A stretch of DNA of 64,000 nucleotides from Octopus vulgaris (Eukaryota), in NCBI GenBank assembly GCA_951406725.2, contig OX597814.1, positions 68,076,001 to 68,140,000 of the forward strand, given 5' to 3'. Every line of letters begins with the position of its first letter. Positions within the stretch are counted from its first letter, which is position 1. A program made the translations under genes and the position numbers. This document shows positions 4,127 to 62,315 of the stretch, piece after piece. The notes under the pieces are model-generated. The model was not told where the DNA came from. It ran no database searches and was given only the letters and a program-made list of their open reading frames with translations.

Positions 4127-4191
<65 letters not shown>

Positions 4192-11948: not shown

Positions 11949-12026
<78 letters not shown>

Positions 12027-12030
<4 letters not shown>

Positions 12031-13233: not shown

Positions 13234-13240
<7 letters not shown>
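12027..13240 (+). repeat. Tandem repeat, 545-bp unit x ~2.2, each full unit with a minimal hammerhead (retrozyme-like)
   Basis: 12027-12571 repeats at 12572-13116, with a partial third copy. (TA)n on both sides. Confidence 0.85.
12353..12404 (+). ncRNA. Minimal type I hammerhead ribozyme (copy 1; copy 2 at 12898-12949)
   Basis: TGAG-CTGATGA-[weak stem II]-GAAA-C-GTAC-G-TT-CTCA, with a palindromic GUAC loop in stem III. Confidence 0.6.
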
Positions 13241-13283
<43 letters not shown>

Positions 13284-30431: not shown

Positions 30432-30769
30432 TGCTGACGGACGGGGCCGTTGGTATCGCTTTCATTTTATCATTTTTTTCGTTTAACACTTCATGTTCAT
30501 ATAGTTTAATTATAATGTTCTATGTCCCCATGTTTTGTGATGTCCGGCACTCTTCGTAGCCCCTTAGTGGGTAATAAAGAAATACGTGGTTTTTTCGGCT
30601 CCGTGTTTTTTTTTTCTCGGCTCCTGAAAATTCGGTAAAAAAGAACAAAAAGCGTTGTTGTTGTTGTGGAAATTCTGAACGGCGTTGACGCGGTTTCGCG
30701 TTTCGCTCGTTCAGCGCGTTACACTTTTTCTGTTTTGGCGGCCGTTTTCGGTCTGTCAGACAGAAGGAA

Positions 30770-32188
30770 ATGGACTATGAGTCTCTAACAGACTTGTCCA
30801 CGACGGATGAGGAACTGGAACAGGCAATTGCAGTGAAGCTGATGGAGGAAAAGGCTGGAGTTTTCGAGTCTTTATCAGACTTGCCTACGTCTGAGAAGGA
30901 GCTAGAAATGGCAGCAAGGAAATTGGAAGACAAGCTGAGTTATACCTATGCCGGTGTAACCAAGAAGGCGGAAGAGAAAGGGGTCGACATGGCCAAGTTG
31001 CCAAGTTACCAGAAATACATGAAAAAGGAAAGCGGTGAGGTGGAACTATCACCGACACCCAGGAGAAAAGAATGGTATGATAAGAGGACCATTGTTTACA
31101 GGGTGTGCGCAAACGAAAGGAAGAGGGTAGAAGTTGTATCCATGGAATGGATAGAGGAAGCCCTGCGAAGAACTGAGGAGGAAATAAATTTTCTGACTCG
31201 AGGATCCAAGTACGGTACCGTAGTTGTGCATTTCAAAACTGAGTCTGCAGCGAGGAAGATGGCGGCGAAGCCGGTGAAGTCAGAAAAGGTAACCCTATTA
31301 CCTACGTATTTAAACAGGAAGATTACACGAATAAGGGTGGAGGGAGTGCCACCAAACGTGGAGGCAGAATGGATTGTGGCGGCTGTGATCAGCGGCCACG
31401 AGGACGAAGTGGATATTCTCCATGCCTCGGTTAAGTCCGAGGGCTGGAGAGGCGTAACAGTGGAGCTGAACGTACAGGCAGAGACCGAGGTACTGGTGGA
31501 CCTGACGGAAAGCATCAGACTGGGAGACGTGGTCATGAGAGTGTGGGTGGAGGGCAGGGCTCCACGTTGTTACAAGTGTGGCCTGAGGGGTCACATAAGA
31601 GCCTTCTGCCCTCCCCCAGGGAAAGAAATGGATTCCGAACCAGAGAGAGAGAAGCAGAAACCAGAGGAGAAGGAAACAAAGGAAGAGAATACACAGAAAT
31701 GGAAGGAAGCTGGAAGTAAGAGGAAGAGAAGAATATGTGGAAAAAAAGAAAATAATATGGAACTCCAATCTACCCCAAAATCTCCCACACCCTCTGAGTC
31801 CCACCCTATCCATGCAGACATTGAACCCACCCGCTCCCCCCCAACAAGAAAACAAAAGGAAAAAAAGAATACACACACACAAGAGATTGAAATCGAACCC
31901 AGGCCGTACATTTGTACTATGACTGAACAGAAGGAAGTTAAAAGTCTAATGGAAGAGTATAAATGGTATGATGTTGGAGAGACTAGGTATGCTGTGATTG
32001 AAAAGAAGAACATAGGTGAGTTTATGGGGAGGTGTGAAAGGGAGAATTGGGAGGTGAAAGATATAAGAATGAGCGATGAATTCGTGGAAAATATGGATGA
32101 GTATTTCGGAGTAAGAATGGATATGGAATTTATTCGTATTGACAAAGAACATTCAAGTGACTATGAAAAACAAAGGACAGGTAAGTGA
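30770..32188 (+). CDS. Intact 472-aa ORF1/gag-like nucleic-acid-binding protein (RRM-like region + CCHC zinc knuckle), unit 2
   Basis: FLTRGSKYGTVVVHF, LLPTYLNRK, RVWVEGRAPRCYKCGLRGHIRAFC align with Tx1 ORF1 at 44910 (YVGRGARSATVEAHF, LLPTYMGKR, RVSVEGRRPRCFKCGEKGHVRSNC). Confidence 0.85.
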   Translation: MDYESLTDLSTTDEELEQAIAVKLMEEKAGVFESLSDLPTSEKELEMAARKLEDKLSYTYAGVTKKAEEKGVDMAKLPSYQKYMKKESGEVELSPTPRRKEWYDKRTIVYRVCANERKRVEVVSMEWIEEALRRTEEEINFLTRGSKYGTVVVHFKTESAARKMAAKPVKSEKVTLLPTYLNRKITRIRVEGVPPNVEAEWIVAAVISGHEDEVDILHASVKSEGWRGVTVELNVQAETEVLVDLTESIRLGDVVMRVWVEGRAPRCYKCGLRGHIRAFCPPPGKEMDSEPEREKQKPEEKETKEENTQKWKEAGSKRKRRICGKKENNMELQSTPKSPTPSESHPIHADIEPTRSPPTRKQKEKKNTHTQEIEIEPRPYICTMTEQKEVKSLMEEYKWYDVGETRYAVIEKKNIGEFMGRCERENWEVKDIRMSDEFVENMDEYFGVRMDMEFIRIDKEHSSDYEKQRTGK

Positions 32189-32524
32189 TGCTGACGGACG
32201 GGGCCGTTGGTATCGCTTTCATTTTATCATTTTTTCGTTTAACAATTCATTTTCATAAAGTTTAATTATAATGTTCTATGTCCCCATGTTTTGTTATGTC
32301 CGCCATTCTTCGTAGCCCCTTAGTGGGTAATAAAGAAATACGTGTTTTTTCGGCTCCGTGTTTTTTTTTTCTCGGCTCCTGAAAATTCGGTAAAAAAGAA
32401 CAAAAAGCGTTGTTGTTGTTGTGGAAATTCTGAACGGCGTTGACGCGGTTTCGCGTTTCGCTCGTTCAGCGCGTTACACTTTTTCTGTTTTGGCGGCCGT
32501 TTTCGGTCTGTCAGACAGAAGGAA

Positions 32525-33941
32525 ATGGACTATGAGTCTCTAACAGACTTGTCCACGACGGATGAGGAACTGGAACAGGCAATTGCAGTGAAGCTGATGG
32601 AGGAAAAGGCTGGAGTTTTCGAGTCTTTATCAGACTTGCCTACGTCTGAGAAGGAGCTAGAAATGGCAGCAAGGAAATTGGAAGACAAGCTGAGTTATAC
32701 CTATGCCGGTGTAACCAAGAAGGCGGAAGAGAAAGGGGTCGACATGGCCAAGTTGCCAAGTTACCAGAAATACATGAAAAAGGAAAGCGGTGAGGTGGAA
32801 CTATCACCGACACCCAGGAGAAAAGAATGGTATGATAAGAGGACCATTGTTTACAGGGTGTGCGCAAACGAAAGGAAGAGGGTAGAAGTTGTATCCATGG
32901 AATGGATAGAGGAAGCCCTGCGAAGAACTGAGGAGGAAATAAATTTTCTGACTCGAGGATCCAAGTACGGGACCGTAGTTGTGCACTTTAAAAGTGAATC
33001 TGCAGCGAGGAAGATGGCAGCGAAGGCGGTGAAGTCGGAAAAGGTAACACTGTTACCTACGTATTTAAACAGGAGGATTACACGAATAAGGGTGGAGGGA
33101 GTGCCACCAAACGTGGAGGCAGAATGGATTGTGGCGGCTGTGATCAGCGGCCACGAGGACGAAGTGGATATTCTCCATGCCTCGGTTAAGTCCGAGGGCT
33201 GGAGAGGCGTAACAGTGGAGCTGAACGTACAGGCAGAGACCGAGGTACTGGTGGACCTGACGGAAAGCATCAGACTGGGAGAAGTGATCATGAGAGTGTG
33301 GGTGGAGGGCAGGGCTCCACGTTGTTACAAGTGTGGCCTGAGGGGTCACATAAGAGCCTTCTGCCCTCCCCCAGGGAAAGAAATGGATCCCGAACCAGAG
33401 AGAGAGAAGCAGAAACCAGAGGAGAAGGAAACAGAGGAAGAGAATACACAGAAATGGAAGGAAGCTGGAAGTAAGAGGAAGAGAAGAATATGTGGAAAAA
33501 AAGAAAATAATATGGAACTCCAATCTACCCCAAAACCTCCCACACCCTCTGAGTCCCACCCTATCCATGCAGACATTGAACCCACCCGCTCCCCCCAACA
33601 AGAAAACAAAAGAAAAAAAAGAATACACACACACAAGAGATTGAAATCGAACCCAGGCCGTACATTTGTACTATGACTGAACAGAGGGAAGTTAAAAGTC
33701 TAATGGAAGAGTATAAACGGTATGATGTTGGAGAGACTAGGTATGCTGTGATTGAAAAAAGAACATAGGTGAGTTTATGGGGAGGTGTGAAAGGGAGAAT
33801 TGGGAGGTGAAAGATATAAGAATGAGCGATGAATTCGTGGAAAATATGAATGAGTATTTCGGAGTAAGAATGGATATGGAATTTATTCGTATTGGCAAAG
33901 AACATTCAAGTGACTATGAAAAACAAAGGACAGGTAAGTGA
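32525..33941 (+). pseudogene. ORF1-like protein, unit 3 (frameshifts in homopolymers)
   Basis: 383-aa ORF plus disrupted C-terminal domain. Confidence 0.8.
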
Positions 33942-34256
33942 TGCTGACGGACGGGGCCGTTGGTATCGCTTTCATTTTATCATTTTTTCGTTTAACACTT
34001 CATGTTCATATAGTTTAATTATAATGTTCTATGTCCCCATGTTTTGTTATGTCCGGCCACTCTTCGTAGCCCCTTAGTGGGTAATAAAGAAATACGTGTT
34101 TTTTTCGACTCCTGAAATTCGGTAAAAAAGAACAAAAAGCGTTGTTGTTGTTGTGGAAATTCTGAACGGCGTTGACGCGGTTTCGCGTTTCGCTCGTTCA
34201 GCGCGTTACACTTTTTCTGTTTTGGCGGCCGTTTTCGGTCTGTCAGACAGAAGGAA

Positions 34257-35674
34257 ATGGACTATGAGTCTCTAACAGACTTGTCCACGACGGATGAGGA
34301 ACTGGAACAGGCAAGTGCAGTGAAGCTGATGGAGGAAAAGGCTGGAGTTTTCGAGTCTTTATCAGACTTGCCTACGTCTGAGAAGGAGCTAGAAATGGCA
34401 GCAAGGAAATTGGAAGACAAGCCGAGTTATACCTATGCCGGTGTAACCAAGAAGGCGGAAGAGAAAGGGGTCGACATGGCCAAGTTGCCAAGTTACCAGA
34501 AATACATGAAAAAGGAAAGCGGTGAGGTGGAACTATCACCGACACCCAGGAGAAAAGAATGGTATGATAAGAGGACCATTGTTTACAGGGTGTGCGCAAA
34601 CGAAAGGAAGAGGGTAGAAGTTGTATCCATGGAATGGATAGAGGAAGCCCTGCGAAGAACTGAGGAGGAAATAAATTTTCTGACTCGAGGATCCAAGTAC
34701 GGGACCGTAGTTGTGCACTTTAAAAGTGAATCTGCAGCGAGGAAGATGGCAGCGAAGGCGGTGAAGTCGGAAAAGGTAACACTGTTACCTACGTATTTAA
34801 ACAGGAGGATTACACGAATAAGGGTGGAGGGAGTGCCACCAAACGTGGAGGCAGAATGGATTGTGGCGGCTGTGATCAGCGGCCACGAGGACGAAGTGGA
34901 TATTCTCCATGCCTCGGTTAAGTCCGAGGGCTGGAGAGGCGTAACAGTGGAGCTGAACGTACAGGCAGAGACCGAGGTACTGGTGGACCTGACGGAAAGC
35001 ATCAGACTGGGAGAAGTGATCATGAGAGTGTGGGTGGAGGGCAGGGCTCCACGTTGTTACAAGTGTGGCCTGAGGGGTCACATAAGAGCCATCTGCCCTC
35101 CCCCAGGGAAAGAAATGGATCCCGAACCAGAGAGAGAGAAGCAGAAACCAGAGGAGAAGGAAACAGAGGAAGAGAATACACAGAAATGGAAGGAAGCTGG
35201 AAGTAAGAGGAAGAGAAGAATATGTGGAAAAAAAGAAAATAATATGGAACTCCAATCTACCCCAAAACCTCCCACACCCTCTGAGTCCCACCCTATCCAT
35301 GCAGACATTGAACCCACCCGCTCCCCCCAACAAGAAAACAAAAGAAAAAAAAGAATACACACACACAAGAGATTGAAATCGAACCCAGGCCGTACATTTG
35401 TACTATGACTGAACAGAGGGAAGTTAAAAGTCTAATGGAAGAGTATAAACGGTATGATGTTGGAGAGACTAGGTATGCTGTGATTGAAAAAAAGAACATA
35501 GGTGAGTTTATGGGGAGGTGTGAAAGGGAGAATTGGGAGGTGAAAGATATAAGAATGAGCGATGAATTCGTGGAAAATATGAATGAGTATTTCGGAGTAA
35601 GAATGGATATGGAATTTATTCGTATTGGCAAAGAACATTCAAGTGACTATGAAAAACAAAGGACAGGTAAGTGA
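34257..35674 (+). pseudogene. ORF1-like protein, unit 4 (frameshift in homopolymer tract)
   Basis: 383-aa + 89-aa ORFs. Confidence 0.8.
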
Positions 35675-35990
35675 TGCTGACGGACGGGGCCGTTGGTATC
35701 GCTTTCATTTTATCATTTTTTTCGTTTAACACTTCATGTTCATATAGTTTAATTATAATGTTCTATGTCCCCATGTTTTGTTATGTCCGCCATTCTTCGT
35801 AGCCCCTTAGTGGGTAATAAAGAAATACACGTTTTTTTGCGCTCTGTAAAATTCGGTAAAAAAGAACAAAAAGCGTTGTTGTTGTTGTGGAAATTCTAAA
35901 CGGCGTTGACGCGGTTTCGCGTTTCGCTCGTTCAGCGCGTTACACTTTTTCTGTTTTGGCGGCCGTTTTCGGTCTGTCAGACAGAAGGAG

Positions 35991-37353
35991 ATGGACAACC
36001 CCTACATGATGGGAGATACGGCTGCAGTTTTTGAGTCTTTAACAGACTTGTCTACGTCTGAGGAGGAGCTAGAAATAGCAGTGAGGAAAATGGATCAGAA
36101 GCTGGGTTATACCTATGCCGGTGTAACCAAGAAGGCGGAAGAGAAAGGGGTCGACATGGCCAAGTTGCCAAGTTACCAGAAATACATGAAAAAGGAAAGC
36201 GGTGAGGTGGAACTATCACCGACACCCAGGAGAAAGGAATGGTATGATAAGAGGACCATTATTTACAGGGTGTTCGCAAACGAAAGGAAGAGGGTAGAAG
36301 TTGTAACCATGGAATGGATAGAGGAAGCCCTGCGAAGAACTGAGGAGGAAATAAATTTTCTGACTCGAGGATCCAAGTACGGTACCGTAGTTGTGCATTT
36401 CAAAACTGAGTCTGCAGCGAGGAAGATGGCGGCGAAGGCGGTGAAGTCAGAAAAGGTAACCCTATTACCTACGTATTTAAACAGGAGGATTACACGAATA
36501 AGGGTGGAGGGAGTGCCACCAAACGTGGAGGCAGAATGGATTGTGGCGGCTGTGATCAGCGGCCACGAGGACGAAGTGGATATTCTCCATGCCTCGGTTA
36601 AGTCCGAGGGCTGGAGAGGCGTAACAGTGGAGCTGAACGTACAGGCAGAGACCGAGGTACTGGTGGACCTGACGGAAAGCATCAGACTGGGAGACGTGGT
36701 CATGAGAGTGTGGGTGGAGGGCAGGGCTCCACGTTGTTACAAGTGTGGCCTGAGGGGTCACATAAGAGCCTTCTGCCCTCCCCCAGGGAAAGAAATGGAT
36801 TCCGAACCAGAGAGAGAGAAGCAGAAACCAGAGGAGAAGGAAACAGAGGAAGAGAATACACAGAAATGGAAGGAAGCTGGAAGTAAGAGGAAGAGAAGAA
36901 TATGTGGAAAAAAAGAAAATAATATGGAACTCCAATCTACCCCAAAACCTCCCACACCCTCTGAGTCCCACCCTATCCATGCAGACATTGAACCCACCCG
37001 CTCCCCCCAACAAGAAAACAAAAGAAAAAAAGAATACACACACACAAGAGATTGAAATCGAACCCAGGCCGTACATTTGTACTATGACTGAACAGAAAGA
37101 AGTTAAAAGTCTAATGGAAGAGTATAAATGGTATGATGTTGGAGAGACTAGGTATGCTGTGATTGAAAAGAAGAACATAGGTGAGTTTATGGGGAGGTGT
37201 GAAAGGGAGAATTGGGAGGTGAAAGATATAAGAATGAGCGATGAATTCGTGGAAAATATGGATGAGTATTTCGGAGTAAGAATGGATATGGAATTTATTC
37301 GTATTGACAAAGAACATTCAAGTGACTATGAAAAACAAAGGACAGGTAAGTGA
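35991..37353 (+). pseudogene. ORF1-like protein, unit 5 (frameshift in homopolymer tract)
   Basis: 354-aa + 149-aa overlapping ORFs. Confidence 0.8.
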
Positions 37354-37670
37354 TGCTGACGGACGGGGCCGTTGGTATCGCTTTCATTTTATCATTTTTT
37401 TCGTTTAACAATTCATGTTCATAAAGTTTAATTATAATGTTCTATGTCCCCATGTTTTGTTATGTCCGCCATTCTTCGTAGCCCCTTAGTGGGTAATAAA
37501 GAAATACGCGTTTTTTTGCGCTCTGTAAAATTCGGTTAAAAAAGAAAAAACAACAAAAAGTGAATTGTGGTTGCGGAATTGGAACGTCGGTTGGTGCGGT
37601 TTCGCGTCGCACTGGTTCTGTGCGTCGCACGTTTTCTGTTCGGGAGGCCGTTTTTCGGTCTGAGGCGACT

Positions 37671-39033
37671 ATGAGCCGCCTCTACCAAACGGATGAGATG
37701 GAAGGGAGAAATTTCTCTGAAAATTCGTCGACATCTGAGGAGGAGTTGGCGGTGAAAAAAATGGAAAGCACCTATGCAGGTATAACGAAGAAGTCAACAG
37801 AAAAAGAGATAGACCTGGCTTAGTTGACGGACTTCCAGGAGTTCATGAAGGAGGAGGAGAACGGAGAGGTTGAGCTGTTGCCTCTAGCAGGGCGCGGAGA
37901 CTGGTTCTATCGTAGAACAATTAAATATAAAGTATTTATGAATGGAGGTAGAAAAATGGAAGTGATTAACATGGAAGCAATTGAAGAGGCTTTCAAACGG
38001 ACAGGAGAAGAAATTGTGTACATGACAAAAGGATTAGAATATGGAACCATAACGGTACAATTTAAAAGTGAGAAAGCAGCCAGGAATATAGCAGCCAAGG
38101 TGGTGAGTACAGAAAAGTTTTACTTGTTCCCCTCGTATTTGAATAGAAGGACCACCAGAATTAGGGTGGAAGGAATACCTCCACACCTAGAGGGCGAATT
38201 AATAACGGCTGCGGTTATCAAAGGAAATGAAGATAAAGTGGACATCCTCCACGCCATTATGAAATATGAAGGCGTGAGAGGTGCCACACTAGTAATGAAC
38301 ATACAGACGGAGGCGGAAGTTATAGAAAAGCTTACGGACAGTATAAAAACTGGAAATATTATTATGAGAGTGTGGGTGGAGGGTAGGGCGCCCAGGTGCT
38401 ACAAGTGTGGCATGAGGGGTCACATAAGAGCCTACTGCCCTCCACCACTAAAGGAAAAAGAAAAGGAAATCGTCGCGGAAGCCCCAAAAGAGGAAGAAAC
38501 CAAAGAGAACCAAAGGGAAAAAGAAACGACAGAAGAAGAGGAGATGCAACAAGAGTGGGAAGAAGGAAGAAAAAAGAAAAAGAAGGAAAAAGAAAAACTG
38601 TGCGAAGCCCCAACCCACCCCAACACCACCCGCACCCTCTGAATCCCACCCTTCCCCTGCAGACAGTGAACCCACCCGCTCCCCTCCAACAAGAAAACAA
38701 AAGAAAAATAACAATACAGACAGACAAGAGTTTGAAAACGAACCCAGGCCGAACATTTATATTGTGACTGAACAGAAAGAGGTTGAAAGGGTAATGGAGG
38801 AGTATGAATGGTATGAAATGGATGGGACCAGATATGCAGTGCTGGAAAAGAAGAATATAGATGAGTTTGTGTTGAGGTGTGAAAGGGAGAATTGGGAGGT
38901 GAAAGATACAAGAATGAGCGATGAATTCGTGGAATATATGGAGGACAGTTTCGGAGTAAGAATGGATATGGATGGTCTTCGTATTGGGAATGAACATTCA
39001 GGTGTCAGTGAAAACAAAAGGACAGGTAAGTGA
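37671..39033 (+). pseudogene. Divergent ORF1-like protein, unit 6 (stop at 37821, frameshifts)
   Basis: YMTKGLEYGTITVQF, RVWVEGRAPRCYKCGMRGHIRAYC, C-terminal ..RCERENWEVKD..RTGK conserved. Confidence 0.8.
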
Positions 39034-40554
39034 TGCTGGCGGAGGGGGCCGTTAGCATCGCTTTCATATTATCATTTTTTCATTTTCATTTGCTCATAAA
39101 TTTAATCATATTGTTCTATGTCCCCCATGTTTTGTTATGTCCGCCATTCTTCGTAGCCCCTGGTGGGTAATAAAGAAATAACATGGAGGAAAGCACATTC
39201 AAAAAGTGTCTTGGTGCGACTGTGAAAGATATCTAACCAGAGGCGGTAAATTCGCCACAATAGAAGCAAGGTTCGAGTCAACGGAGCGTGCAAGGGAGTA
39301 CTCGACTCGAAGTTGCAAAGTGGAAATATTTTATTTTTACCTTTATATTTGGGACGTAGGACGTCCCGGATAAAAATTTTAAATGCCCCCCCCCCATAAG
39401 TAGAGGTAGGCTGGATTGTAGATACAATTGATCGAAATTACAAGAGACGGGCTAACAATTCCAGTCTGTTATATATTTTGAGTATTGTTATCACTAGCGA
39501 TATCAAGATATAACTTTGTATTTTGTATTTTATGTGTAGATGTATATATATAGATGTACATGTAACATGTACACATATATATACACATATATATACACAT
39601 ATATACATGCACTAGCACTATGACCCGGCAACGACGGGTCATAATGCTAGTAATAAATAATAGAGAGGTGGATATATCATGTGGGGTGATGAAAATTGTA
39701 AAATTTGTTATTTAAGAGAGCATGATCTATGTGTGTATCAGATGTTGAGGATAAATGAGAAACAGAGTATGTGAACTAGTGGTGGTTGTACGGTAGAAAC
39801 TAACATGGATTGCAGTCCGAAATATTCATTTAAAACTGTATTGTTCTTCTTGTATAGACAGTACTGTAATACAGTGTACATTTCTTCTTTGTGGGCCATA
39901 AAAACCTGTTAATACTAAAATTGTCTTAAACCCTGAATAGAAGTCTTCCTTATAAATTCCATAATTTGTCACTATGAAAAAGGTCAAACTTTGCAAGGCC
40001 GAACTTAGCAATTACCGAAACTTTGGACGTTTCAGTGAAAGAACCTTATGTGTAATTTGACGTCGATTTGAGTAGTAATCATATTTTGATGTCATTGATA
40101 AAGACAGCATTATTATTTCTTTATTGGAGTTGGTTGTTAAAATTTTGTTCATGGACGTGTGTAGATTACTTATAGATGACATTTGTGTTCTAAAATGTGT
40201 CTACATATGAATGTTAATTTGATTTACTTAAGGATGTAAATGATATAATAGAAATCTGTAGTACAACAAAATGAATTATTCTGGGTTGGAGAGATCGTCG
40301 TCTGTCTGGAAAACTTCCAAGATAACAGATGAGAGATATGTACTGCGCATAAGCCAGCAACTTTTTCTGGTTCTTCCTGCAAAGAATATTACAACCGAAT
40401 AAAGAAAATTTAGACCTCAGAACTCTCTGCATTCAATAAAACAGTGACCCACAGCGTGTTTGCAGTGTCAGTACTCATAACAATATTTGGGCTGCTTGAT
40501 TGGACGCTTGATGAGATCCGAGCCAAACACGAAAAATGCTAACACGCACACATA

Positions 40555-44273: not shown

Positions 44274-44697
44274 AGACGTCACTAGAAAAACTCTTATATA
44301 TTTGCAAAGCAGCCTTGTCTTTCATCGCGACCTGGTGGTTAGCGCCCGTTGATAAGGGACAATAATCCCGAAACTAGTCCGAGCGTATCACTCAGGCTTG
44401 CGAGAAAGGGATGGCCTCCCTTTGCAAATACTTCAAGGGCACTAAAATGGTGTCTAAAGCCAGCTGGAGACGACGATCTCCTGGGGCTATAGAGCTACAG
44501 TAACACCCCCTCCCCTATGTGGTTAGCCATATTAAGATGGCTTCTATACTTTACATTATCGAGCGATTACTATTTACATCTCATTCTGAGATTTAATAAT
44601 GCTTACAGTCAGTTTTTCGAAATCAGTGGCAGACGTCACTAGAAAAACTCTTATATATTTGCAAAGCAGCCTTGTCTTTCATCGCGACTTGGTGGTT
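44274..44697 (+). repeat. 357-bp tandem unit with hammerhead (second unit split by Tx1, resumes 49974-50205)
   Basis: agacgtcactagaaaaactc at 44274 and 44631; continuation after the Tx1 insertion. Confidence 0.85.
44343..44385 (+). ncRNA. Minimal type I hammerhead (U3/A8 variant); identical copy at 49993-50035
   Basis: CGCCCG-TTGATAA-GGGA caataa TCCC-GAAA-CTAG-TC-CGAGCG. GUC triplet, ACTAGT palindrome. Confidence 0.75.
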
Positions 44698-44909
44698 TGT
44701 CACTCGTCTAGGGACCCCTCTTTCATCTGCGTATTGAGAAGTTAGCTGCCTATTTTGTCCGTCGTTAATTTGTGTTTGCTCGTGAATTTGAACAGTTGTC
44801 CGTTGTGTGACAGTAATTTTCGCCCTACGGGGCTGAAAATTCTGTGTATAAACATTGTTATTACCTTCGGGGTAATTTTTTTGAAAAATTGGTTCTCATA
44901 ATTTGAGAA

Positions 44910-46319
44910 ATGGAGTACGACTTGGCGTCGAGGAGCGACTTTCCCGTGATGGGAAAAGGCGAACAGAAGGATATCGAGGTTAGAAAACAGTCTTTTTCGG
45001 CCGCAGTGGGCGGAACCGTAACGGAAGTGGAATTCAAAATAGAACAGTTGTTCGAATACCGGAACTTGGTCAAAAAGGAAGGCAACGAAATAAAACTGGT
45101 ACCGCCGCAAGCGATATTACAGGAAATAAAGGCCAAGACAGTCGTGTACAAGGTTTACAGTAACAAAGAGAAAAAAATAATGGACGTGAAGAACGAAATA
45201 GTAGAGAAGTGCTTGTCCCCGGTGCGGAGCAAAATTCGCTACGTCGGTCGAGGTGCTCGCAGCGCTACCGTTGAAGCACATTTCGACTCGGCTGATGTGG
45301 CAAGAGAGATTTCATCAATGACCTTAAAAAATGAGGACATTATATTACTACCTACCTATATGGGCAAAAGAAATGCGAAACTATATGTGGAAGACATACC
45401 AAGAGGATATGATATAATGTGGGTAGCAGCGGTGGTTCTGCACGACGTAGAGCAGAAAGTTTCAATTCTGCAGATGAAAAGGAAAGAGGAGGTAAACTGG
45501 AAGGGACAAGCGCTCGAACTCCTCGTTCAAGCAGAAAATAATGTGCTAGAAAACTTACCCGATAGGGTATTTATTGAGGAGGGAATTTCAATGAGAGTTT
45601 CAGTGGAGGGGCGCAGACCTAGGTGTTTCAAATGTGGTGAAAAGGGTCACGTCCGCTCGAACTGCATAAAAAAAAGTGCTTCAAACACAGAAAAAGAAAA
45701 GGCGGAAAAAGACCCCAAGACTGCGACAAGGAAGGGAATCGAAACGGAAGATAGAAATGAACAAATGAAATTTACACAGGTGACACACAAAAGAAAAAAA
45801 GAAAATACCCTGGACTCTCCTCCCCAAACAAAGAAAAAATCAGCAAACACCGCAGAGATACATACAAAACAAATTCCCCAGCCCTACCCCCACGGCACTG
45901 TATTCATTGGAACACAGTTCGCCAAGCCCCACCCCATAAAACAAGATTGGAAAAAATTGATAAAAAAAAATGAAAAGATTGTAGCATTCGACGAGAGGAA
46001 CGATAGAGTGTTTAAGTATTTTAAATTTTCAAAACTGAAATTATTCAGTAAGTCTGCAGACACTAAGTCAACCACTCGTTTTGCAAAAATAAAGGAAGAC
46101 GAGTGGAAGGAAAAAACACTCCAAGAACATTTTAAAAATAACATTATCAGAGACGTAACTAACGAAATACTGGAGGGCAAACTTACTATAACCCCGGCAA
46201 CCACACCTATCCAGAGCCCGATGGCAACGCCGGTTAAGAGCCCTGCAGCTACGACCACAAGGGAGGAAGAAGGGGAAGCATGCAGATTTAAACTGTCATG
46301 CTCCCTGTCCCAACCGTAA
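44910..46319 (+). CDS. Tx1 ORF1 (RRM-like + CCHC knuckle), 469 aa intact
   Basis: VEGRRPRCFKCGEKGHVRSNC; lies directly upstream of the APE-RT ORF. Confidence 0.85.
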   Translation: MEYDLASRSDFPVMGKGEQKDIEVRKQSFSAAVGGTVTEVEFKIEQLFEYRNLVKKEGNEIKLVPPQAILQEIKAKTVVYKVYSNKEKKIMDVKNEIVEKCLSPVRSKIRYVGRGARSATVEAHFDSADVAREISSMTLKNEDIILLPTYMGKRNAKLYVEDIPRGYDIMWVAAVVLHDVEQKVSILQMKRKEEVNWKGQALELLVQAENNVLENLPDRVFIEEGISMRVSVEGRRPRCFKCGEKGHVRSNCIKKSASNTEKEKAEKDPKTATRKGIETEDRNEQMKFTQVTHKRKKENTLDSPPQTKKKSANTAEIHTKQIPQPYPHGTVFIGTQFAKPHPIKQDWKKLIKKNEKIVAFDERNDRVFKYFKFSKLKLFSKSADTKSTTRFAKIKEDEWKEKTLQEHFKNNIIRDVTNEILEGKLTITPATTPIQSPMATPVKSPAATTTREEEGEACRFKLSCSLSQP

Positions 46320-46346
46320 GTTTTTTTTTTTTTCCTCTCTCCGACA

Positions 46347-49300
46347 ATGGCAAAGCTGGGTTGTGTGAATGTGCGTGGAATGGGGTCGAAATGGAAACAA
46401 ATTTGTCTCCAGAACGACCTCACGACACACGGAGTGGACGTAGCTATTGTAACCGAGTCCAAGATGAACGGGGCCCAAGCGTTCTCGCCTCTTCTAAATG
46501 GTTTCGAGAAATTTATTTCTCCTAGCCGAGGAGGAGTCCTTATCAGGAAGAGCTTGGACTTGCAGGTAAGTACTGTCTTTCTGGACCCAGAAGGCAGGCT
46601 GGTCGTTCTGGATGTGACCCACGTAAGTAAACAGTCCTTCAGGTTGGTAGCTGTCTACGCTCCGAATGAGTGTAGGCAGTCGGGTTTTTTTCGGAATCTG
46701 GAGCTCTTTTTAGTGACGTCGAAAACGGTAGTCTTAGTAGGGGACTTTAACACTGTCCTCGAAGCGCGGGTCGACGGTGTTGGCTCAACCAATAGGAAGG
46801 GGAACACTAGCCTCAAGGGTCTACTAGAGAGCTTTAATCTAGTAGACCGTTATCGACTGGATGAGCCGAACGTTCCACAGTGGCCGTGGAGTAACAACGA
46901 CGGCTCACGCAGATCGTATATAGATAGGATATTCGTTAGGAAAAGAGATAAGGATACGTTTAGTTGTCCACAGTTCCACATTGTGCCTTACACGGATCAC
47001 AAATTTGTGACTTGTAGGGTGCAATTAGATATGTGCCATAGACAGGGACCCGGTACTGGAAAATGAACAAGTCTATTTTGAATTGTGAAGACTTCCGTAC
47101 CCGGATTAAGGTGTTAGTACAGAGGGCATTATGTGGCACCATCATTAACAACAGATGGTGGCACTCCCTCAAAAGAGCCATTCGTTCAGAGTCCATTAGA
47201 TTTAGCAAACAGCTAAGGTTAGATAGGTCTAGGATAGAGGACGATTTAGTTAAGAATCTAAACGAGGCAATGGAATCTGGTTCTGCATCCGGAGTGATGG
47301 CGGCAAGGACGGTATTGTACCGTCACCTTAACTCTAAACACGAAGGTTGCAGAGTTAGAGCTAAGCTACGCGCAGGGAAACGAGAAGGTATTAACGTTGC
47401 CGGATGGGCCCGTCGAGTGGAGAGTCAGAGAGGTAACAAAGCTTCAATCAAGTCTTTAACTGACGAACAGGGACACAAGATCTATGGACAGGAGGAGATG
47501 CAAAAGTTTCTTCACCAGCATTTCGCCCGCTCGTTCGGGAGATGGTGGTTCGCTGGAGCGGGGGAGGGCCTTAAAGGACTTCCTAGCCGGCGGACCGCGG
47601 CTCTCGGGGCGTGAGGTGGAGTGCTGTGAAGGAGCGATCACTCCCGCGGAGATAGAGGGGGTACTGGCCGGATGCGCCGGGGAGAAGTCGCCGGGGGTGG
47701 ATGCTCTGCCCTACGAGTTTTATCAAAGTATGCCGGACTTGTTCGGGGGAATACTGGCAGGCGTCTACGCGAACTGGCAGTAGAACGGGAGAATTCCCAG
47801 TTCTGTAAGCCGGGGAGTGGTGACGCTAATCCAGAAAGACCCGAGCAAGGAGGATAACATTAGTAGTTACAGGCCCATAACTCTACTTAATGTAGAGTTA
47901 AAGATTTTGGCCAAGGTGTTGGCAAAAAGGTTGACGACTGTCGTAGAGAAACTTGTAGGGAAAGCACAGACATGTGCAATTCCAGGCAGGTCGATCCAGG
48001 ACAATCTTCACCTTATACGCTACACCTTAGATAGGGTGGGTAAATTAACCGGCAAGGGCGGGGTAATGGTCCATTTAGACCAAAGTAAAGCGTTCGATAG
48101 GGTAGACCATAAGTACCTGGCGACGGTCCTCGAAGCGGCTGGACTGGGCCCTGAATTTCGCGGGTGGATCTCCGCTATGTATAGCGGCATCAAGTCCACC
48201 GTTCAGATAAACGGTCACCTAACGGAACCGTTTTCGATCGAATGTTCAGTTCGTCAAGGGTGCCCCTTGTCACCACTTTTGTACGTGTTGGCTCTCGAGC
48301 CACTGCTGCAAAAGTTGGAGAGGCTGAGAAGTAACCCGGGTGAGATCGGAGGCGGGAGGACGGTTTCTGCTTATGCGGATGACGTCACCCTCATCGTGTC
48401 CAATGAGGCTCAGCTACCTTGTGTAGAAGATGCTATCAGAGGATAAGAGGCGGTGGCAGGAGCAAAAGTTAACAAGGACAAGTCGATTGGCTTACGCCTC
48501 GGCACCTGGAGGAGCAAGTCGATATCGTCCAGTGCCGTGGGACACTGGACAGATGGTCCTGTTAAGTTGCTAGGAGTTTGGTTTGGGCCAGACTCCCAAA
48601 CGGAGAGGAATTGGAGTGAGGTGACGGACAAGGTGGAGGCCATAGTACGGACCTGGTCTGGAAGGTTTCTGTCCTTGAAAGGAAGGGCGGAGGTGGTACA
48701 GCTGTTCATTGCATCTGTAATCACTTACCGCCTGACCGTTGTCCCTTGCCCCGATTCATGGCATAGCAAGTTGGAGCGAATCCTTTTCCGCTTTTTTGTG
48801 GAAAGGAGGAAAGCCACTTGTGAGGCGCTCCGTTTGCTGCCAGGAACCGTTAAAGGGTGGGTTAGGAATGCCTTGGTTGATGATGTGCAGACATGCGTTG
48901 AGGCTGAAGCATCTCTGGCACCACCTGGAGGGTGATACGGTGTGGAGTCCGCTGGCAGGGGAATTTTTCCCGAGATCGGCTTCCTTAGTGAATTTTAAAC
49001 CCGGTTGCATCAAAAGACGGAATCTGACATTATGGCAAAAGGAGTGCCGACAGGCACTCACGCTGATCCACAAGGCGAGTAAGGCCGGCTGCGGAAATAC
49101 CACCTCGGTATTTTATAGCAGGTTGGTAGAGGCAAAGAACGATGACGTCCTAGGAGGGGCTCTGGGGTTCGACGAAGACCAGCTTACCAACCTGTTTAAA
49201 AAGACTTTCAGGACGGGGTATTTGGATAATTTCCAAAGATCCCTGGCCTGGCAGCGTTATAGGAATGCTTTACCTGTTCGCGAGAAGTTATCGTGGCACG

Positions 49301-49722
49301 GAATTTCAGTGCATCCGACATGTCCAAGATGCGGGTTGGACGATGAAACCGTCCAGCACGCTTTTGTACACTGTCGGCAGTTGTCAGACTTGATAAGTTA
49401 CGCAGAACACGTGTTATCGCATCTTGGACGAGTACAGCTGTCGGCTGAGTCTATGATTAAGATGATATCACCAACTGGACTCTCGAAGGAAGGTGAGGCA
49501 TGTTTTCACTGCACGGTTGCAGTAGTAAAATGATGTATGTGGCGGACAAGAATGGAAGGAGTCGCAATAGGATCCTTTGTCTCAGGCCTCGGCTTGCTCA
49601 CTTACTTCAGATATCATCTGAAGAGCAAAATGGGGCTGGAAAAGAAGACCTTACCACGAGGTGTGTATGAAAAAAGATGGAAGGAAGTGGCGAAAAAGGT
49701 GGGTGTCAGAAACTCAGTTTAA
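46347..49722 (+). pseudogene. Tx1 ORF2 (APE endonuclease-RT-zinc finger), multiple stops/frameshifts
   Basis: GCVNVRG, VAVYAPN, GDFN, SYIDRIFV, TDH; YRPITLLNVELKILAKVL, HLDQSKAFDRVDH, VRQGCPLSP, AYADD; CPRCGLDDETVQHAFVHC. Confidence 0.9.
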
Positions 49723-50201
49723 CTATGGATGGAGAAGAGGAAAGGAAAGCTGCAGGGCCTTATAGGTTGCCGGGGTTTAAAATATATCGGTAAGATTTCA
49801 ATCTAATGTAATGTTATATTAGTCAATGCAAAGGACAATTTAAATACAGTTTTTTGTATAATGAATAATCCATATATTTTGGAAATTTTTAAACGAACCA
49901 CTTAACTGTTTTTTGTATGTATTTTCTGTATTGTTCTTCTATGTACTGATTTTATAATCGTAATAAAGAATTAATCGCGACCTGGTGGTTAGCGCCCGTT
50001 GATAAGGGACAATAATCCCGAAACTAGTCCGAGCGTATCACTCAGGCTTGCGAGAAAGGGATGGCCTCCCTTTGCAAATACTTCAAGGGCACTGAAATGG
50101 TGCCTAAAGCCAGCTGGAGACGACGATCTCCTGGGGCTATAGAGCTACAGCAACACCCCTCCCCTATGTGGTTAGCCATATTAAGATGGCTTCTATACTT
50201 T

Positions 50202-53578: not shown

Positions 53579-53621
<43 letters not shown>

Positions 53622-53630
<9 letters not shown>

Positions 53631-53976
53631 AATAGGGGTTTTGCAACAAGTCGCAACAAGTTGCAACCACATACCGAAACTTTTAGAAATAGCAGCCAAA
53701 AGACTACTATTTCCTTTTACTACAAAAATAAGTCTCCACAGACAACAATATTTGTAACTCACATATGGCAAAAAGAGAAGAAAAAGAATGAAATCACAAC
53801 CGAAGACTGTGATTTCATTACTTTTCTTCTTTTTTTTGCCATATGTGAGTTACAAATATTGTTGTCTGTGGAGACTTATTTTTGTAGTAAAAGGAAATAG
53901 TAGTCTTTTGGCTGCTATTTCTAAAATTTTCGGTATGTGGTTAAGCAACTTGTTGCAAAACCCCTATTATTATAAT
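53622..53976. repeat. ~350-bp near-perfect foldback (inverted repeat)
   Basis: Arms 53622-53798 and 53807-53976 are reverse complements (e.g. agaaatagcagccaaaagactac / gtagtcttttggctgctatttct). The +/- ORFs 53538 and 53788 translate nearly identically. Confidence 0.9.
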
Positions 53977-54081
53977 TATATAAATTTTTATCGAATATGG
54001 TCCTTTTCCATACCGAAATACTACTAGGTGAAATTTGTTGATTTTATTAAATTAATTATATTTCACCCTATACCTGTAATG

Positions 54082-54714: not shown

Positions 54715-56282
54715 GCTTCTTTGCTCCAGTCAATGGATAATGGTATGATAGCTAACTTCACTCTTTGTATGAGAACTTTCTAACAATTTATGAAAGCAAC
54801 TGACAAGGAGGATAAACCTACAGTTAGAGATTTCTGGGAGAAATTCAACACAGTGGATGCTATGGACAATACAGCTGAGTCATGGGATGAAGTAAAACCT
54901 TAAACCATGAAATAGTGCTTGGGAAAATATATGGCCAGACTGTATTCGTGTCCTTTTGCAAAGGATGTAGGACTTGAAGAAATCATTGAGGATGATGTGA
55001 TTGAGTTGATGTTATTTGAAAACGAACAAATTGAGAATACAGATGAGACAATGGAAGTTCCATCTAGGCGGCGAGCAGGCAGAAGCGTTAGCACGCTGGG
55101 CGCAATGCTTAGCGGTATTTTGTCTGCCGCTACGTTCTGAGTTCAAATTCCGCCGAGGTTGACTTTGCCTTTCATCCTTTCGAGGTCGATTAAATAAGTA
55201 CCAGTTACGCACTAGGGTCGATATAATCGACTTAATCCGTTTGTCTGTCCTTGTTTTTCCTCTCTGTGTTTATCCCCTTGTGGGTAGTAAAGAAATATGT
55301 ATTTCGTCTGTGTTTACGTTCTGAGTTCAAATTCTGCCGAGGTCGACTTTGCCTTTCATCCTTTCAGGGTCGATAAATTAAGTACCAGTTGCACACTGGG
55401 ATCGATCTAATCGATTGGCCCCTCCCCACAAATTTTGGGCCTTGTGACTAGAGTTAGAAAGAATGAATGTTCCATCTATACTATTTAAATTGCCAACAAA
55501 AATTATTGCTTAAGAGTTGTCACTCATAGCGGAACGTAACATAAAAATTACAAGAAGAGTTTACAATGTCTTCAGTTCCTGAGCTGTATAAAGAGATGAT
55601 GTGTCATAAACAACGAACAACTTTGGATAAGATTTTCAGCCCTCATGCTAATGATCTACTATATTAATACTCTTGTGTCTTTGTCCGTCACAACATATGA
55701 ATGAGAAAGGAAGGGGTGATGGCAAAACGTGAATGTTTGTATGTGTGTAAAGAAAAATCAAACGATGTTTCAACTCTGTGTGAGTATATGTGTGTATGTG
55801 TGTGCGTGTACAGGGGAAGTATGTGAATGTCTGTATGTGTGATTATTATGTACCTTATATTTGTATATAAAATACTACAATTGGCTGTCGTTTTTGACGA
55901 CACCAGCTAGTAGTAAATATTGTCCCTCGCTCTCCTAGTAACGCTCATTCTACCACCACTCCTCGTCTGTTAAGGTAAGAACGTACTCTTACGATATTAC
56001 GATTCCTCTTGAAATGGTTTTGTAGCTATATTGTACTGGGTGTTTAGAAATACTTTTATGTATAAATTGATCGCGCTGCTTGTTTTCAGTTGTTTTCTTG
56101 TGATTCTTGTTTTTTTGTTTTGCTTTTTGTTTTGCATTTTTTAAAAATGTCCGTAGGAACGCAGTCTCACTTGATAATGCAAAAATCAACGGAAAAATTA
56201 ATTTTGTATCCTGGAATTTCGCGTTACGGACAGATTTTCAGGAACGCATTACTTCCGTAAAGCGAAGGATCTTTACTCCAGT
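54715..56282 (+). mobile_element. Tigger/pogo-like DNA transposon relic (interrupted by SINE)
   Basis: LQSMDNGMIANF..MKATDKEDKPTVRDFWEKFNTVDAMDNTAESWDEVKP; ELYKEMM..TTLDKIF; 3' end ggaacgcattacttccgtaaagcgaagg resembles Tigger termini. Confidence 0.6.
55065..55465 (+). mobile_element. SINE family B dimer (Tx1-type-tail copy joined to the internal head site of a second copy)
   Basis: ...tttatccccttgtgggtagtaaagaaata|tgtatttcgtctg... Confidence 0.8.
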
Positions 56283-58295: not shown

Positions 58296-59029
58296 AAATA
58301 TAACATTCTTAAAAAAACTAGTTTGATATTCAACTTTTGGTGACGTCAGAGGATAACGAAAGAATAAAGAATAAACATTTGATTCTACATTAAGACAACT
58401 AGAAACAAAGAGCAAAACAGAGTGCGTGAGATAAAAAAGACAGGTAGATAGACAAAACGGAGATTCATATCTTCCTTCTGCCAATGAGGTAATATGTATC
58501 TTCATTTAAAGGAACTTATTTATAATGTGGTAGGTTAATAATTTAACTAAACGTCTCTAAGCGATCCTGTTGAGAAATGTGTTTCTGTACACACGTACAC
58601 ACATACAACCAGACAGGTAATATTGTTGTTATACTCCTATTTATGTACCTGTGTCTACGAGTGGATCATTACACATATAGACAGAGAGAGAAAGATTATA
58701 CGGTTTGCATGGATTAACACCACCACCTGGCACGTTGGGTGCCTTTCCTGCATTCCACTCTTTTGTAATCATTCTAGTGAGCGTTAACATTTGAAAATAC
58801 CTCATTCTTCAATCCCACTAGTTGCCGAGGCCCTGCATGTGTCATAGTCATTGCCTTCTCTCCAGACTCTGCTCTGGAGCACCGCCTTTAGTCGAGCAAA
58901 TCGACTCCAGGACTTATTCTTTGTAAGCTTAGTACTATCGGTCTCTTCTGCCAAACCGCTAAGTTACGGGGACGTAAACACACCAGCATCGGTCGTCAAG
59001 CGATGTTGGTAGGGACAAACACAAACACA

Positions 59030-59078
<49 letters not shown>

Positions 59079-59232
59079 ACATACATATATACGACGGGCT
59101 TCTTTCAGTTTCCGTCTACCAAATCCATTCACAAGGGCTTGGTCGGCCCGAGGCTATAGAAGAAGACACTTGTCTAAGGTGCCAAGTAGTGGGACTAAAC
59201 CCGGAACTATGTGGTTGGAAAGCAAGCTACTT

Positions 59233-61293
59233 TATTTCATAAAATTTGTCATCATAGACAGCTTTGCGGGCTGGACAAACACATTAATGGATGAAAATGA
59301 AATAGAATGAATAAATGAGAGACGAAACCCAACACCCGCCGATTGGATTTTTCTCGAAAACATATTTTCTTTTTTTAAAAAATCAATATGAGGTTTCAAA
59401 CCTCTTACAAGAAGGAGGCACTAAAACCTCTTACTTAACATGTTCTTTTTTTTAAACACACGATTGAGGTTATAAACCACTACAAATAATACAATAAGAT
59501 GAGGTTTCAAACCCTATAACGGGGGTCTTTCACCTCCTACTCTTCGATATATCCATCGATATATTAATTATTATCTTCAATGCCGCTTGAGTTCCTGTAT
59601 CCCGCCATTTCCCATGCCTCACTCATGTAGGATATGTAAGTCGTGTAAGGGCCACCCGGCCATATGCGACACTCCTTCCCAAATCCTTTAAGCCTTTCCC
59701 ACAAGGGAAACCTTATGACCTCCACAGCTATCTGCGGAGGCCATTCGGGATCCCGTGTGAAGGGCATATCTATTGTCTCTTTATGTTCTTCTACTATTTT
59801 TCCACCTCCCCGCCCTTATAGAAAAAGATAATTAATTGATCATCTTTAAGGGTGGGGTGGTTTCTTCCACCGTGGGTGGCACAACTTCGGGACATGCAGA
59901 CGGCACATCATCTCACCGCTGAGATGAACCATTCTTCTTCCTTCTTTTTTTCTTTTCTTCCTGACTTCGGGAGAGTGGAGCTCTTCCGCTTTGTCCGGAG
60001 ACTCTCCCCCGCCTCCCGACGCCTTAGGTTCTTTCGGCGGGCAACTATTGTTGCCCGCCTTCTTCCGTTTTAATCCTTTTTGAGTTGAGGAGGCTGAAGC
60101 CTCCTCGACCACATCCACCTCTCCCTTTGACCGGGTAGAGGAGGTGGCATATAGTGACTGTTCCAGGACCTTACCATGGTCCTGTGGGCAGTTCCTTTTA
60201 ATGTGGCCTGGCTGCAGGCACGAGTGACACTTGGGGGGACGTCCCTCAAGTATCACCGGATTCCTGCAGCCAGCCATTTTCAAGAAATCTGGAAAAACCA
60301 GATCTGTTGCGGCTGATGGGGTCCGCAGGGTCAAAATCGCTTTTGACCCTTCCCAATCGACCGCCGGCAATACCCTTCCATTTAAGAGCCTGGGCCCGCC
60401 ATCCCCCAGTCCCCGTCGGATGGTATCTTCAATCCAATCCGCTTCGGTGCCTGGGAGTAACCCACATACCCAGGCTCGTATTAATTTTCTCCCGCAATAT
60501 GACGGAAGGAACAGAATTTCCTTGCCTTCTAAAGGCTGACTCGCAAACTGGCGAGCCTTTTCCCCGTTGTCAAACAGCAACCATACGGTTGCATGTTTGG
60601 CACCACGGGATGTGTATTTTACCGAGGACAAATAGTCTTTAAGTTCATATTTTATAACTTGTTTTGGTAAGACGGTGATGGAATAAAGAACTTTAAAATA
60701 GGTTCTAAGCACCATCGTCTTCTCCTCCATATCTTTTAACCACTACTTAGGCGGGTTAATTTCCCACTCTAAGTCAGAGTTTTTCTTTTTAAGTTCCTTC
60801 TCTGCCATGTCAAAAAACAGTTCAAAAGTAGTTCAAAAGACAGTCTGCCAAAAAATTAAACCGAATAAAAAATAAAACAAAATAAAAGAGGAGGGGATGA
60901 AACTGAAATTAAAGTAATGAAAAGAATAAACCAAAATTTAGAAAGAAAGAAAAAATAGAAGAAGGGAAAATAAAAGAAAAACCTCACAAATAGCACAGAC
61001 AGGGAACCCTTTGTATAATAGTCCAAAAAGGTAATCCAAATGGTTTATTCCAGTTCAGAAAAATTGTACTTTTCGGGCGAGATACGCCCACTAGAATTTG
61101 CAAAACGAGTTTTCAAGCAAAAATTCTCAATTCACCGTTACGGTGATGAGAACCCAGTATTTTGCTCGCTATAGCGAGCCATAATTGACAATTTTTCTTT
61201 TTGTTCTTTTTTCTATTCACGGAGCCCAAAAAACTGACATCTTGTCATTGTAACAGTCCAGACCAACTAGTGTTGCATTCTAGGTAACCGGAA
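59233..61293 (-). mobile_element. Solo ~2.06-kb ORF1-only Tx1-related retroelement with 15-bp TSD
   Basis: TSD g(a/t)aagcaagctactt at 59218-59232 and 61294-61308; 5' motif cagttttttgggctccgtgaatagaaaaaagaacaaaaa; ends AATAAA. No RT or endonuclease. Confidence 0.8.
59564..60808 (-). pseudogene. ORF1-like protein (RRM-like + CCHC), one early stop and a C-terminal frameshift
   Basis: KYTSRGAKHATVWLLF, LFLPSYCGRK, VILEGRPPKCHSCLQPGHIKRNC; 294-aa main ORF 59846-60730. Confidence 0.8.
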
Positions 61294-61328
61294 GTAAGCA
61301 AGCTACTTACCACACAGCCACCTCTACG

Positions 61329-61389
<61 letters not shown>

Positions 61390-61543: not shown

Positions 61544-62315
61544 TAAGGCAGCGAGCTGGCAGAAACGTTAACACGTCGGTCGAAATGCTTAGCGATTTTC
61601 GTCTGCCGCTACGTTCTGAGTTGAAATTCCGACGAAGTTGACTTTGCCTTTCAATCTTTCGGGGTCAATAAATTAAGTGCCAGTTGAGTACTGGAGTAGA
61701 TTTAATCAATTGGCCTCCACCCAAAAAATGTCGGGCCTTGTGCCTAGAGTAGAAAAGACTATTATAAAGATTGTTAAGGCGGCGAGCTGGCAGAATCGTT
61801 AGCACGCCGGGTGAAATGCTTAGAGGTATTTTGTCTGCCGTTACGTTCTGAGTTCAGATTCCGCCGAGGTCGACTTTGTCTTTCATCCTTTCGGGGTCGA
61901 TGAATTAAGTACCAGATGCCCCCTTCCCCCAAAACTTTCCAAGACCTTGCGCCTAGATTAATCCGTTTGTCTGTCCTTGTTTGTCCTCTCTGTGTTTAGC
62001 CCCTTGTGGATAATAAAGAAATAGGCATTTCGTCAGCCACTACGTTCTGAGTTCGGGGTCGATGAAATAAGTACCAGCTGCCCCCTTCCCCAAATTTTTT
62101 CAAGACCTTGCGCCTAGATTAGAAATAATTATTATAATGATTGTTGATGCTAATTATTATTGTTAAGGCAGCGAGCTGACAGAAACGTTAGCACGCCGGG
62201 CAATATGCTTAGCCTTTCATGCTTTCGGCGTCGATTAATTAAGTACCAGCTGCGTACTGAGGGTCGATATAATCGACTTGTCCTCTCCCCCCAAATTTCA
62301 AACCTTGTGCCACTA
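61544..62315 (+). mobile_element. Cluster of SINE family B copies
   Basis: Three taaggc(a/g)gcgagctg.cagaa heads. Tx1-type tail tttagccccttgtggataataaagaaata at about 61995-62023, followed by ggcatttcgtc. Confidence 0.85.

Follow-up and report, generated by a model that had tools for sequence, protein, structure and literature searches.

An ORF1-only retrotransposon of Octopus vulgaris at a single base of a tRNA-derived SINE head, a target common to an autonomous Tx1-like LINE

A 2.06-kb insert on the minus strand of a 64-kb stretch of the Octopus vulgaris genome (the window) is a dead copy of a dispersed, ORF1-only family of retrotransposons, and the position in the head of a SINE at which it resides is a sequence-specific target common to an autonomous LINE; this target, which excludes a chance landing, had been overlooked in the original prediction made from the letters of the window. 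We consider it likely, with a probability of about 0.85, that this dead ORF1-only copy at one base of the SINE head was produced by the endonuclease and reverse transcriptase (RT) of an autonomous Tx1-like LINE. The target, the tail and the terminal hairpin that the element and the LINE have in common point to mobilization in trans by the ORF2 protein of such a LINE.

Read along the minus strand, the locus runs from the SINE head through one copy of a target duplication, the insert and the second copy of the duplication to the remaining SINE (Table 1), as had been described, with the duplication identical at 14 of 15 positions and the SINE split between its A and B boxes. The host SINE combines A- and B-box-like motifs in its head with a high copy number, which places it among tRNA-derived SINEs; the box calls follow the usual consensus, and the SINE may resemble the CORE-SINE OR2. 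ARAGORN found no true tRNA in the window, and an Rfam scan of a neighbouring stretch (L069), with the element outside the scanned part, returned microsatellite noise only. The insert does encode only a single long RRM-like/CCHC ORF1 (zf-CCHC, Pfam E = 3e-4), with no remnant of ORF2. Compared with the family frame, this ORF is broken by a stop at codon 22 (60743-60745) and by five more breaks after codon 285, and the copy is therefore dead. The repeated hairpins foreseen in the 3' UTR were located as three cores. The expected terminal AATAAA is present, but it is not wholly element sequence: the element terminates in GAAATA, and the final two A of AATAAA (59231-59236) are the first two bases of the duplication.

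Table 1. Features of the insert and its host SINE in the window
Feature	Positions	Strand	Remarks
ORF1-only non-LTR retrotransposon, full-length dead copy, 2,061 bp	59233-61293	-	96% identity to family majority
Target duplication, 5' copy, 15 bp	61294-61308	-	
Target duplication, 3' copy	59218-59232	-	14/15 identical to 5' copy, one mismatch
5' part of host tRNA-derived SINE head	61309-61330	-	A-box-like 11-mer at 61310-61320
Rest of host SINE	58874-59217	-	B-box-like 11-mer at 59191-59201, body, CA microsatellite, 3' part
5' UTR of window copy, 485 bp	60809-61293	-	long pyrimidine-rich tract ahead of ATG
5' motif (T-run, GGCTCC, A-rich block)	61197-61234	-	common to array units and family F101
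ORF1 pseudogene, family frame 424 aa	59537-60808	-	two predicted RRM folds, basic low-complexity tail
CCHC knuckle within ORF1 pseudogene	60188-60229	-	
3' UTR hairpin motif, three copies	59390-59513	-	cores 59390-59404, 59468-59478 and 59503-59513
Predicted 6-bp GC stem, 59334-59339 with 59266-59271	59266-59339	-	closes pyrimidine-rich loop
Terminal tail common to autonomous LINE	59233-59260	-	4-bp hairpin 59247-59260, then GAAATA, no poly(A)

The genome (2.8 Gb in 227 contigs) was searched with the insert alone, and 40 of 2,361 candidates were scored, giving 30 loci of the window family (F001). Full-length copies were present at 24 of these 30 listed loci; they measure 2,001-2,075 bp (about 2.05 kb) and are 95-98% identical to the family majority. 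None of the 24 has an intact 424-aa ORF and none contains ORF2, the best tblastn match with the ORF2 of the autonomous partner described below having E = 5.5. The alternative that other family members contain ORF2 and that the insert is a one-off internal deletion thus finds no counterpart in these copies, and the proposal that ORF1-only elements move as units is borne out. When the same-length copies were compared for independent duplications, as had been suggested, private variants common to both copies of the duplication were found at 6 of the 24 loci, and amplification of the unit by retrotransposition is supported by duplications, 5' truncation and dispersed loci. The description of the window copy as solo holds locally but not elsewhere, where relatives are stacked in tandem (L011, L014, L027, L082, L091 and L103). 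Within F001, pN/pS relative to the majority is 0.49, which suggests that selection after insertion is weak or absent.

The 3' end of F001 joins the same SINE base at 29 of 30 loci, including the window copy, with the thirtieth lacking a 3' end; the SINE head of the window copy also precedes the element at other loci. A 188-bp query limited to the 3' end found this base at 27 of 30 loci (several of which overlap the first set); two of the three exceptions start within the target and differ in their 3' flank, and the third (L241) inserted cleanly outside the target, into a target-like sequence. With element-only queries for other families, the same SINE base was found at 25/25 loci for the autonomous LINE and 20/20 for F101, as well as at 17/17 and 17/18 located 3' ends for F080 and F096, respectively (20 loci examined in each, the 3' end not being found at three and two of them). 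More than 20% of flanks belonging to one repeat type has been used as the criterion of sequence specificity (PMC4494074), and here the share is 90-100% of located 3' ends in five families. The exact 30-mer junction occurs 265 times genome-wide, its reversed control 0 times, and exact empty sites number 28,609 for the first SINE variant and 28,847 for the second (57,456 in all), which corresponds to an occupancy of about 1% for the first variant (265 versus 28,609). Tandem stacks of different families also occur at the rebuilt target.

A constant junction could also arise without any targeting if one old SINE insertion had been amplified as a SINE-plus-ORF1 unit, and both the full SINE head and body that flank nearly every F001 copy and the abundance of the host SINE, with its many empty sites in two variants, are in keeping with such hitch-hiking. 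Distances between elements and distances between their flanking SINEs are, however, uncorrelated in three families (Mantel r = -0.08, p = 0.77, n = 23 for F001; r = -0.05, p = 0.76 for F101; r = 0.00, p = 0.48 for the autonomous family), the SINE side of the test comprising only 7-8 informative columns; a positive control that compared the 5' half with the last 130 element columns gave r = 0.63 and 0.53 (p = 0.0002), with no defined value for the autonomous set. This lack of correlation between the genealogies of element and host SINE shows that the insertions were independent. Private duplication variants on both sides, 5'-truncated inserts of 20-1,100 bp at the same base, the presence there of unrelated elements (a 5.44-kb LINE and the L104 type, see below) and the tandem stacks also speak against hitch-hiking, which is largely refuted by the uncorrelated distances, the private variants and the truncated inserts and which we regard as having hardly any chance of being correct.

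A T at duplication position 11 is present in the 3' copy at 4 loci, all of which are among the 9 loci that have it in the 5' copy (hypergeometric probability 0.012, calculated by hand), and private variants at positions 7-10 are common to both sides; truncated inserts of 20 and 25 bp keep the full duplication. Of the 24 5' junctions of the autonomous family, 23 have the A13 variant at their end; A13 is found on the 5' side at 7 of 8 loci with a non-A13 3' target, these 7 having one extra base; in F101, the 5' side is A13 at 7 of 9 non-A13 targets. In young families, the last 5-6 bases of the 5' duplication copy are supplied by the element. The excess of A13 at 5' junctions and the private variants at positions 7-10 suggest a true stagger of no less than 9-10 bp, the rest being mimicked by the first bases of the element. 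Older families lie mostly in T13 SINEs and carry T13, and young families lie mostly in A13 SINEs (16/24 and 11/20) and carry A13.

To characterize the occupants of the target, the upstream 6.5 kb were read at 60 junctions out of 265, namely 20 chosen among the first 30 in the list and the 40 that followed. The tail type of the window element was present at 41 of these, with ORF2 similarity at none of the 41; a second tail type was present at 8, with ORF2 similarity at 6, and the remaining 11 were left unclassified, with ORF2 similarity at 2. The second tail type belongs to a 5.44-kb LINE whose copies differ by about 1% from their majority. One copy (L137) has both ORFs intact, with an ORF1 of 467 aa that includes a CCHC knuckle and an L1-like ORF2 of 1,133 aa that includes an endonuclease, an RT and a C-terminal zf-RVT, an architecture of the Tx1 type; another copy (L131) has ORFs of 466 and 1,133 aa. 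The best solved relative of the partner ORF2 is human L1 ORF2 (E = 1e-66), and the architecture makes the partner a probable Tx1 element. A 414-aa ORF1 is retained by 7 of 20 F101 copies, and these copies together with the intact ORFs of L137 suggest that the SINE-targeting system is probably still active, a statement that does not extend to F001. At about 1% from its majority, against 2-5% for the window family, the intact partner family is the younger of the two, which suggests that the actual donor was an older relative. The same SINE base is also occupied at L104 (G000:C3:71264463-71271292) by an ORF1-only element of 1.47 kb whose ORF1 belongs to another lineage and which represents a second, independent ORF1-only origin.

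Several other elements of the window were noted. A tandem array of 1.7-kb ORF1-only units at 28884-39180 (+) belongs to a young dispersed family (97-99% identical) with arrays on many contigs; several of these have their left flank in common, the right flank of the window array recurs at one, and the array thus seems to have its own fixed context, distinct from the host SINE. A decayed autonomous Tx1-like LINE at 44700-49975 (+), hereafter the 45-kb LINE, is flanked by a repeat of about 17 bp and lies inside another dispersed repeat, copies of which are found at 2057-2307 and 44321-44605; it is possibly a second sequence-specific family. Another common SINE has a 3' tail (55242-55300 and 61968-62026, +) that matches the array tail as well as the final ~60 nt of the autonomous Tx1-like LINE and that ends in GAAATA, a similarity suggesting that this SINE is probably mobilized by a Tx1-like LINE. 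At 4186-11325 (+), a putative Penelope-like element, with RT and GIY-YIG-like ORF pieces recognized by eye and repeats at 4186-4851 and 8160-8576, is followed by a 929-aa ORF that presumably encodes the endonuclease/RT of another LINE. Also observed were a tandem duplication (12022-13241), near-perfect and with a period of 545 bp, and a 385-bp inverted-repeat element (53607-53991).

The ORF1 of the window family aligns to autonomous ORF1s at 23-28% identity with 16 invariant columns, and identity between the partner ORF1 and the ORF1-only clade is approximately 25-30%. The predicted fold of an intact relative (mean pLDDT 81) consists of two alpha/beta domains and a knuckle; its best structural matches are tandem-RRM proteins (E = 5e-5 upward), with low TM-scores due to domain orientation, and ZCCHC3-like RBD clusters are found among the atlas matches. 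A sequence search of solved structures with ORF1 returned nothing (best E = 0.22), and the closest named protein, from Octopus sinensis, is 64% identical to an intact relative. In an 18-row ORF1 tree with a midpoint root, the eleven sampled ORF1-only lineages and the O. sinensis protein form one clade (100/100), which lies far from the partner and from the array units and 45-kb LINE of the window, with L104 on the other side. The comparison of ORF1 phylogeny with autonomous Tx1 elements that had been proposed thus sets the ORF1-only clade apart from the sampled autonomous ORF1s, and the count of at least three ORF1-only lineages in 64 kb stands, as the three window lineages are distinct in the tree. 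In all six pairs of four family majorities (about 200 codons), dN/dS is 0.08-0.23, with dS against the window family near saturation (2.0-3.0) and those ratios correspondingly rough; by these values, ORF1 is under purifying selection between ORF1-only families.

Low dN/dS values would also be expected if every ORF1-only family had arisen by deletion from an autonomous parent of its own and were short-lived, the values dating from the parents' autonomous time. HAL1 arose several times in mammals (PMC5753468), L104 is a second, independent ORF1-only origin at the same site, and the pN/pS of F001 fits such short-lived families. The eleven lineages nevertheless form one clade with a long stem, far from all sampled autonomous ORF1s; 14 aligned 3' UTRs of the clade have one common layout, which autonomous elements lack, and ORF2 was found at 0 of 41 loci with the clade tail. 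Recurrent deletion thus appears very unlikely.

Sequence common to the window element and the partner LINE is confined to the last ~40 nt. The 4-bp hairpin in this tail has 94% of cells paired across 22 sequences, with two-sided changes at three of the four pairs; none of 500 shuffles, a control that ignores relatedness, scored as high, and slid controls were 15-52% paired. The last copy of the 3' UTR hairpin is kept across ORF1-only families (91.5% of cells paired, two-sided change at one of five pairs), and the 6-bp GC stem, with one-sided changes only, is typical of the ORF1-only clade and absent from the autonomous tail; covariation is weak for both structures, though both are conserved in the clade. 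In alignment A3 the window row is misaligned at the hairpin, with the stem present by eye. A three-helix model was modestly above shuffles (21/500), and folding was no better than for shuffles in the terminal 128 nt (z = +0.46), with z = -2.56 for the hairpin region.

Insertion might also be directed by RNA, through a brief segment antisense to the target within the 3' UTR. Within their last 100 nt, 7 of the 17 tails from the same target, the autonomous one included, have antisense matches of 9-11 nt, each above 200/200 shuffles, and the tails of the array and the 45-kb LINE match over only 4 nt. However, the match spans only 3-7 nt in each of the 24 copies of the window family (5 nt for the window copy itself) and 4 nt in L104, yet both are equally site-specific, and the longer matches may merely pair with read-through target RNA or be relics of captured target. 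An antisense motif in the tail was thus rejected as a requirement, and we consider RNA-guided targeting unlikely.

At the 5' end, the motif described as common to the window element and the array units was indeed recovered, above 300/300 shuffles. Against ten other 5' ends from the same target, nine comparisons, including both autonomous elements, were at shuffle level; significance was reached with the array units and F101 and not with the 45-kb LINE. The suggestion that it serves as a target signal was rejected, as array units carry it outside the host SINE and 5' ends at the same target mostly lack it; the promoter role that had also been proposed stays putative. Among listed holders of words of a young ORF1-only copy, none is recorded as RNA; one run presumed to be RNA has a 2,083-nt contig across a young relative and was not counted as evidence of expression. 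Between 33 and 44% of the words of such a copy are present in runs that bear the labels of three other organisms, and one of these runs covers all 30 bins, which suggests that the family extends to related species. Of 13 sequences scanned, 8 (F101, F080, F096, L083, L087, L090, L093 and L099) have a splice-donor-like AG/GTRAG at 80-115 nt from their 5' end, with a pyrimidine tract ahead of the ATG; the AG/GTRAG is absent from the window family. These signals may mark a 5' UTR intron, and no splice joint across the 5' UTR was found among the joints listed for the presumed-RNA run. Replacement of the 5' UTR between near-identical ORF1-only subfamilies was also observed, with 13 matches starting at query base 356 and in L099 versus L101.

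Copying by the enzymes of the partner LINE, the reading that we prefer, could proceed as follows. The ORF1-only element would be transcribed from an internal Pol II promoter, its own ORF1p would coat its own RNA in cis, and partner ORF2p would bind the terminal hairpin. Directly 3' of the A box, the SINE would be nicked by the partner endonuclease, and reverse transcription, primed by the target, would start at GAAATA; pairing of read-through RNA with the target possibly aids priming, given that the element copies no poly(A) and that its AATAAA depends on target bases for completion. The duplication would result from a second nick, 9-15 bp downstream of the first, with target-like bases at the 5' end of the element aiding the join, and the insertion would separate the A and B boxes and rebuild the target, on which later elements could stack in tandem. 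A partner ORF2 that carries out target-primed reverse transcription and has a sequence-specific endonuclease would explain the common base, the common tail, the truncations and the stacking. The Tx1L endonuclease is sequence-specific and of the APE type (PMC1950540), the ORF1-only element TRE5-A.2 is mobilized in trans (PMC3159450), and R2Ol is aided by read-through target RNA (PMC6530143). We also slightly favour a wider reading, with three tiers of parasites, in which the SINE head would be a landing pad that renews itself, the Tx1-like LINE would be dedicated to it, and an old ORF1-only clade, with saturated synonymous sites and an ORF1 under purifying selection, would live on the ORF2 of the LINE.

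Transposon-targeting Tx1 LINEs and ORF1-only half-LINEs (HAL1, HeT-A, TRE5-A.2) are known separately and are combined here. ORF1-only non-autonomous LINEs of the HAL1/HeT-A type were reportedly covered by Bao and Jurka in 2010. Known targets include Tx1D for Tx1L in Xenopus, Mariner-N4_AMi for Tx1-Mar with SINEU-3, Harbinger for Tx1-9_AMi and U2 genes for Keno (PMC4494074, PMC1950540). As in target-specific Tx1 LINEs, an APE-type LINE and its non-autonomous passengers insert into another transposon in octopus, with duplication and with tandem stacking at the regenerated site; by contrast, the target in octopus lies between the A and B boxes of a SINE head, the passengers come with an ORF1 of their own, whereas known passengers are non-coding, and specificity is to a single base in 90-100% of copies examined. 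Tx1 targets listed in the available text of Kojima 2015 are piggyBac, Mariner, Harbinger, LTR elements, snRNA genes and microsatellites, with no SINE (PMC4494074).

ORF1-only elements have been described from the L1 clade (HAL1), Jockey (HeT-A) and CR1 (Ag-Sponge) (PMC5786205, PMC5753468), and the accessible portion of Kojima 2018 names Jockey, L1 and CR1 only as their sources (PMC5786205). Like these, the octopus elements keep ORF1 alone and a LINE-like 3' tail and would depend on ORF2 in trans; no Tx1-derived case is named there, whereas the octopus lineage has at least 11 sampled branches, shares ~40 nt with its partner and inserts at one base. TRE5-A.2 of Dictyostelium is also ORF1-only and site-specific and is mobilized by full-length TRE5-A.1, with a structured 3' end essential, a trans step that we infer for octopus; however, it is a close deletion derivative, whereas the octopus ORF1 is only 25-30% identical to that of its partner, and it inserts ~50 bp upstream of tRNA genes via ORF1-TFIIIB contact, whereas the octopus elements lie at a fixed base inside tRNA-derived sequence (PMC3159450). 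The host SINE is abundant and of the tRNA type, like the octopus tRNA-derived SINEs OK, OR1 and OR2 (Ohshima and Okada 1994, cited in PMC4758252). An octopus repeat annotation counts L1-Tx1 families, and the words ORF1 and nested are absent from its available text (PMC13282606). A literature search over titles, abstract openings and openly available passages found neither a SINE-head target nor a Tx1-derived ORF1-only clade; Repbase or Dfam may contain an octopus Tx1 entry with a remark on its target.

The window locus is one dead copy, and the interest lies in the whole system. The target class, the Pol III promoter of a SINE, was not met in the paper searches, and the partner endonuclease is a candidate new sequence-specific nickase. 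Each insertion should disable the promoter of the host SINE, which would link LINE and SINE dynamics. In annotation, such inserts will be wrongly divided between SINE fragments and CCHC genes labelled "uncharacterized", as one named relative suggests. If the three-tier reading is true, LINE RNA would need a self-encoded ORF1p that is not necessarily cognate to ORF2p, and the ends of the elements would track the change in SINE subfamily (T13 to A13). Intact young ORF1-only copies and an intact partner, with a one-base read-out, offer a natural test of why half-LINEs keep ORF1.
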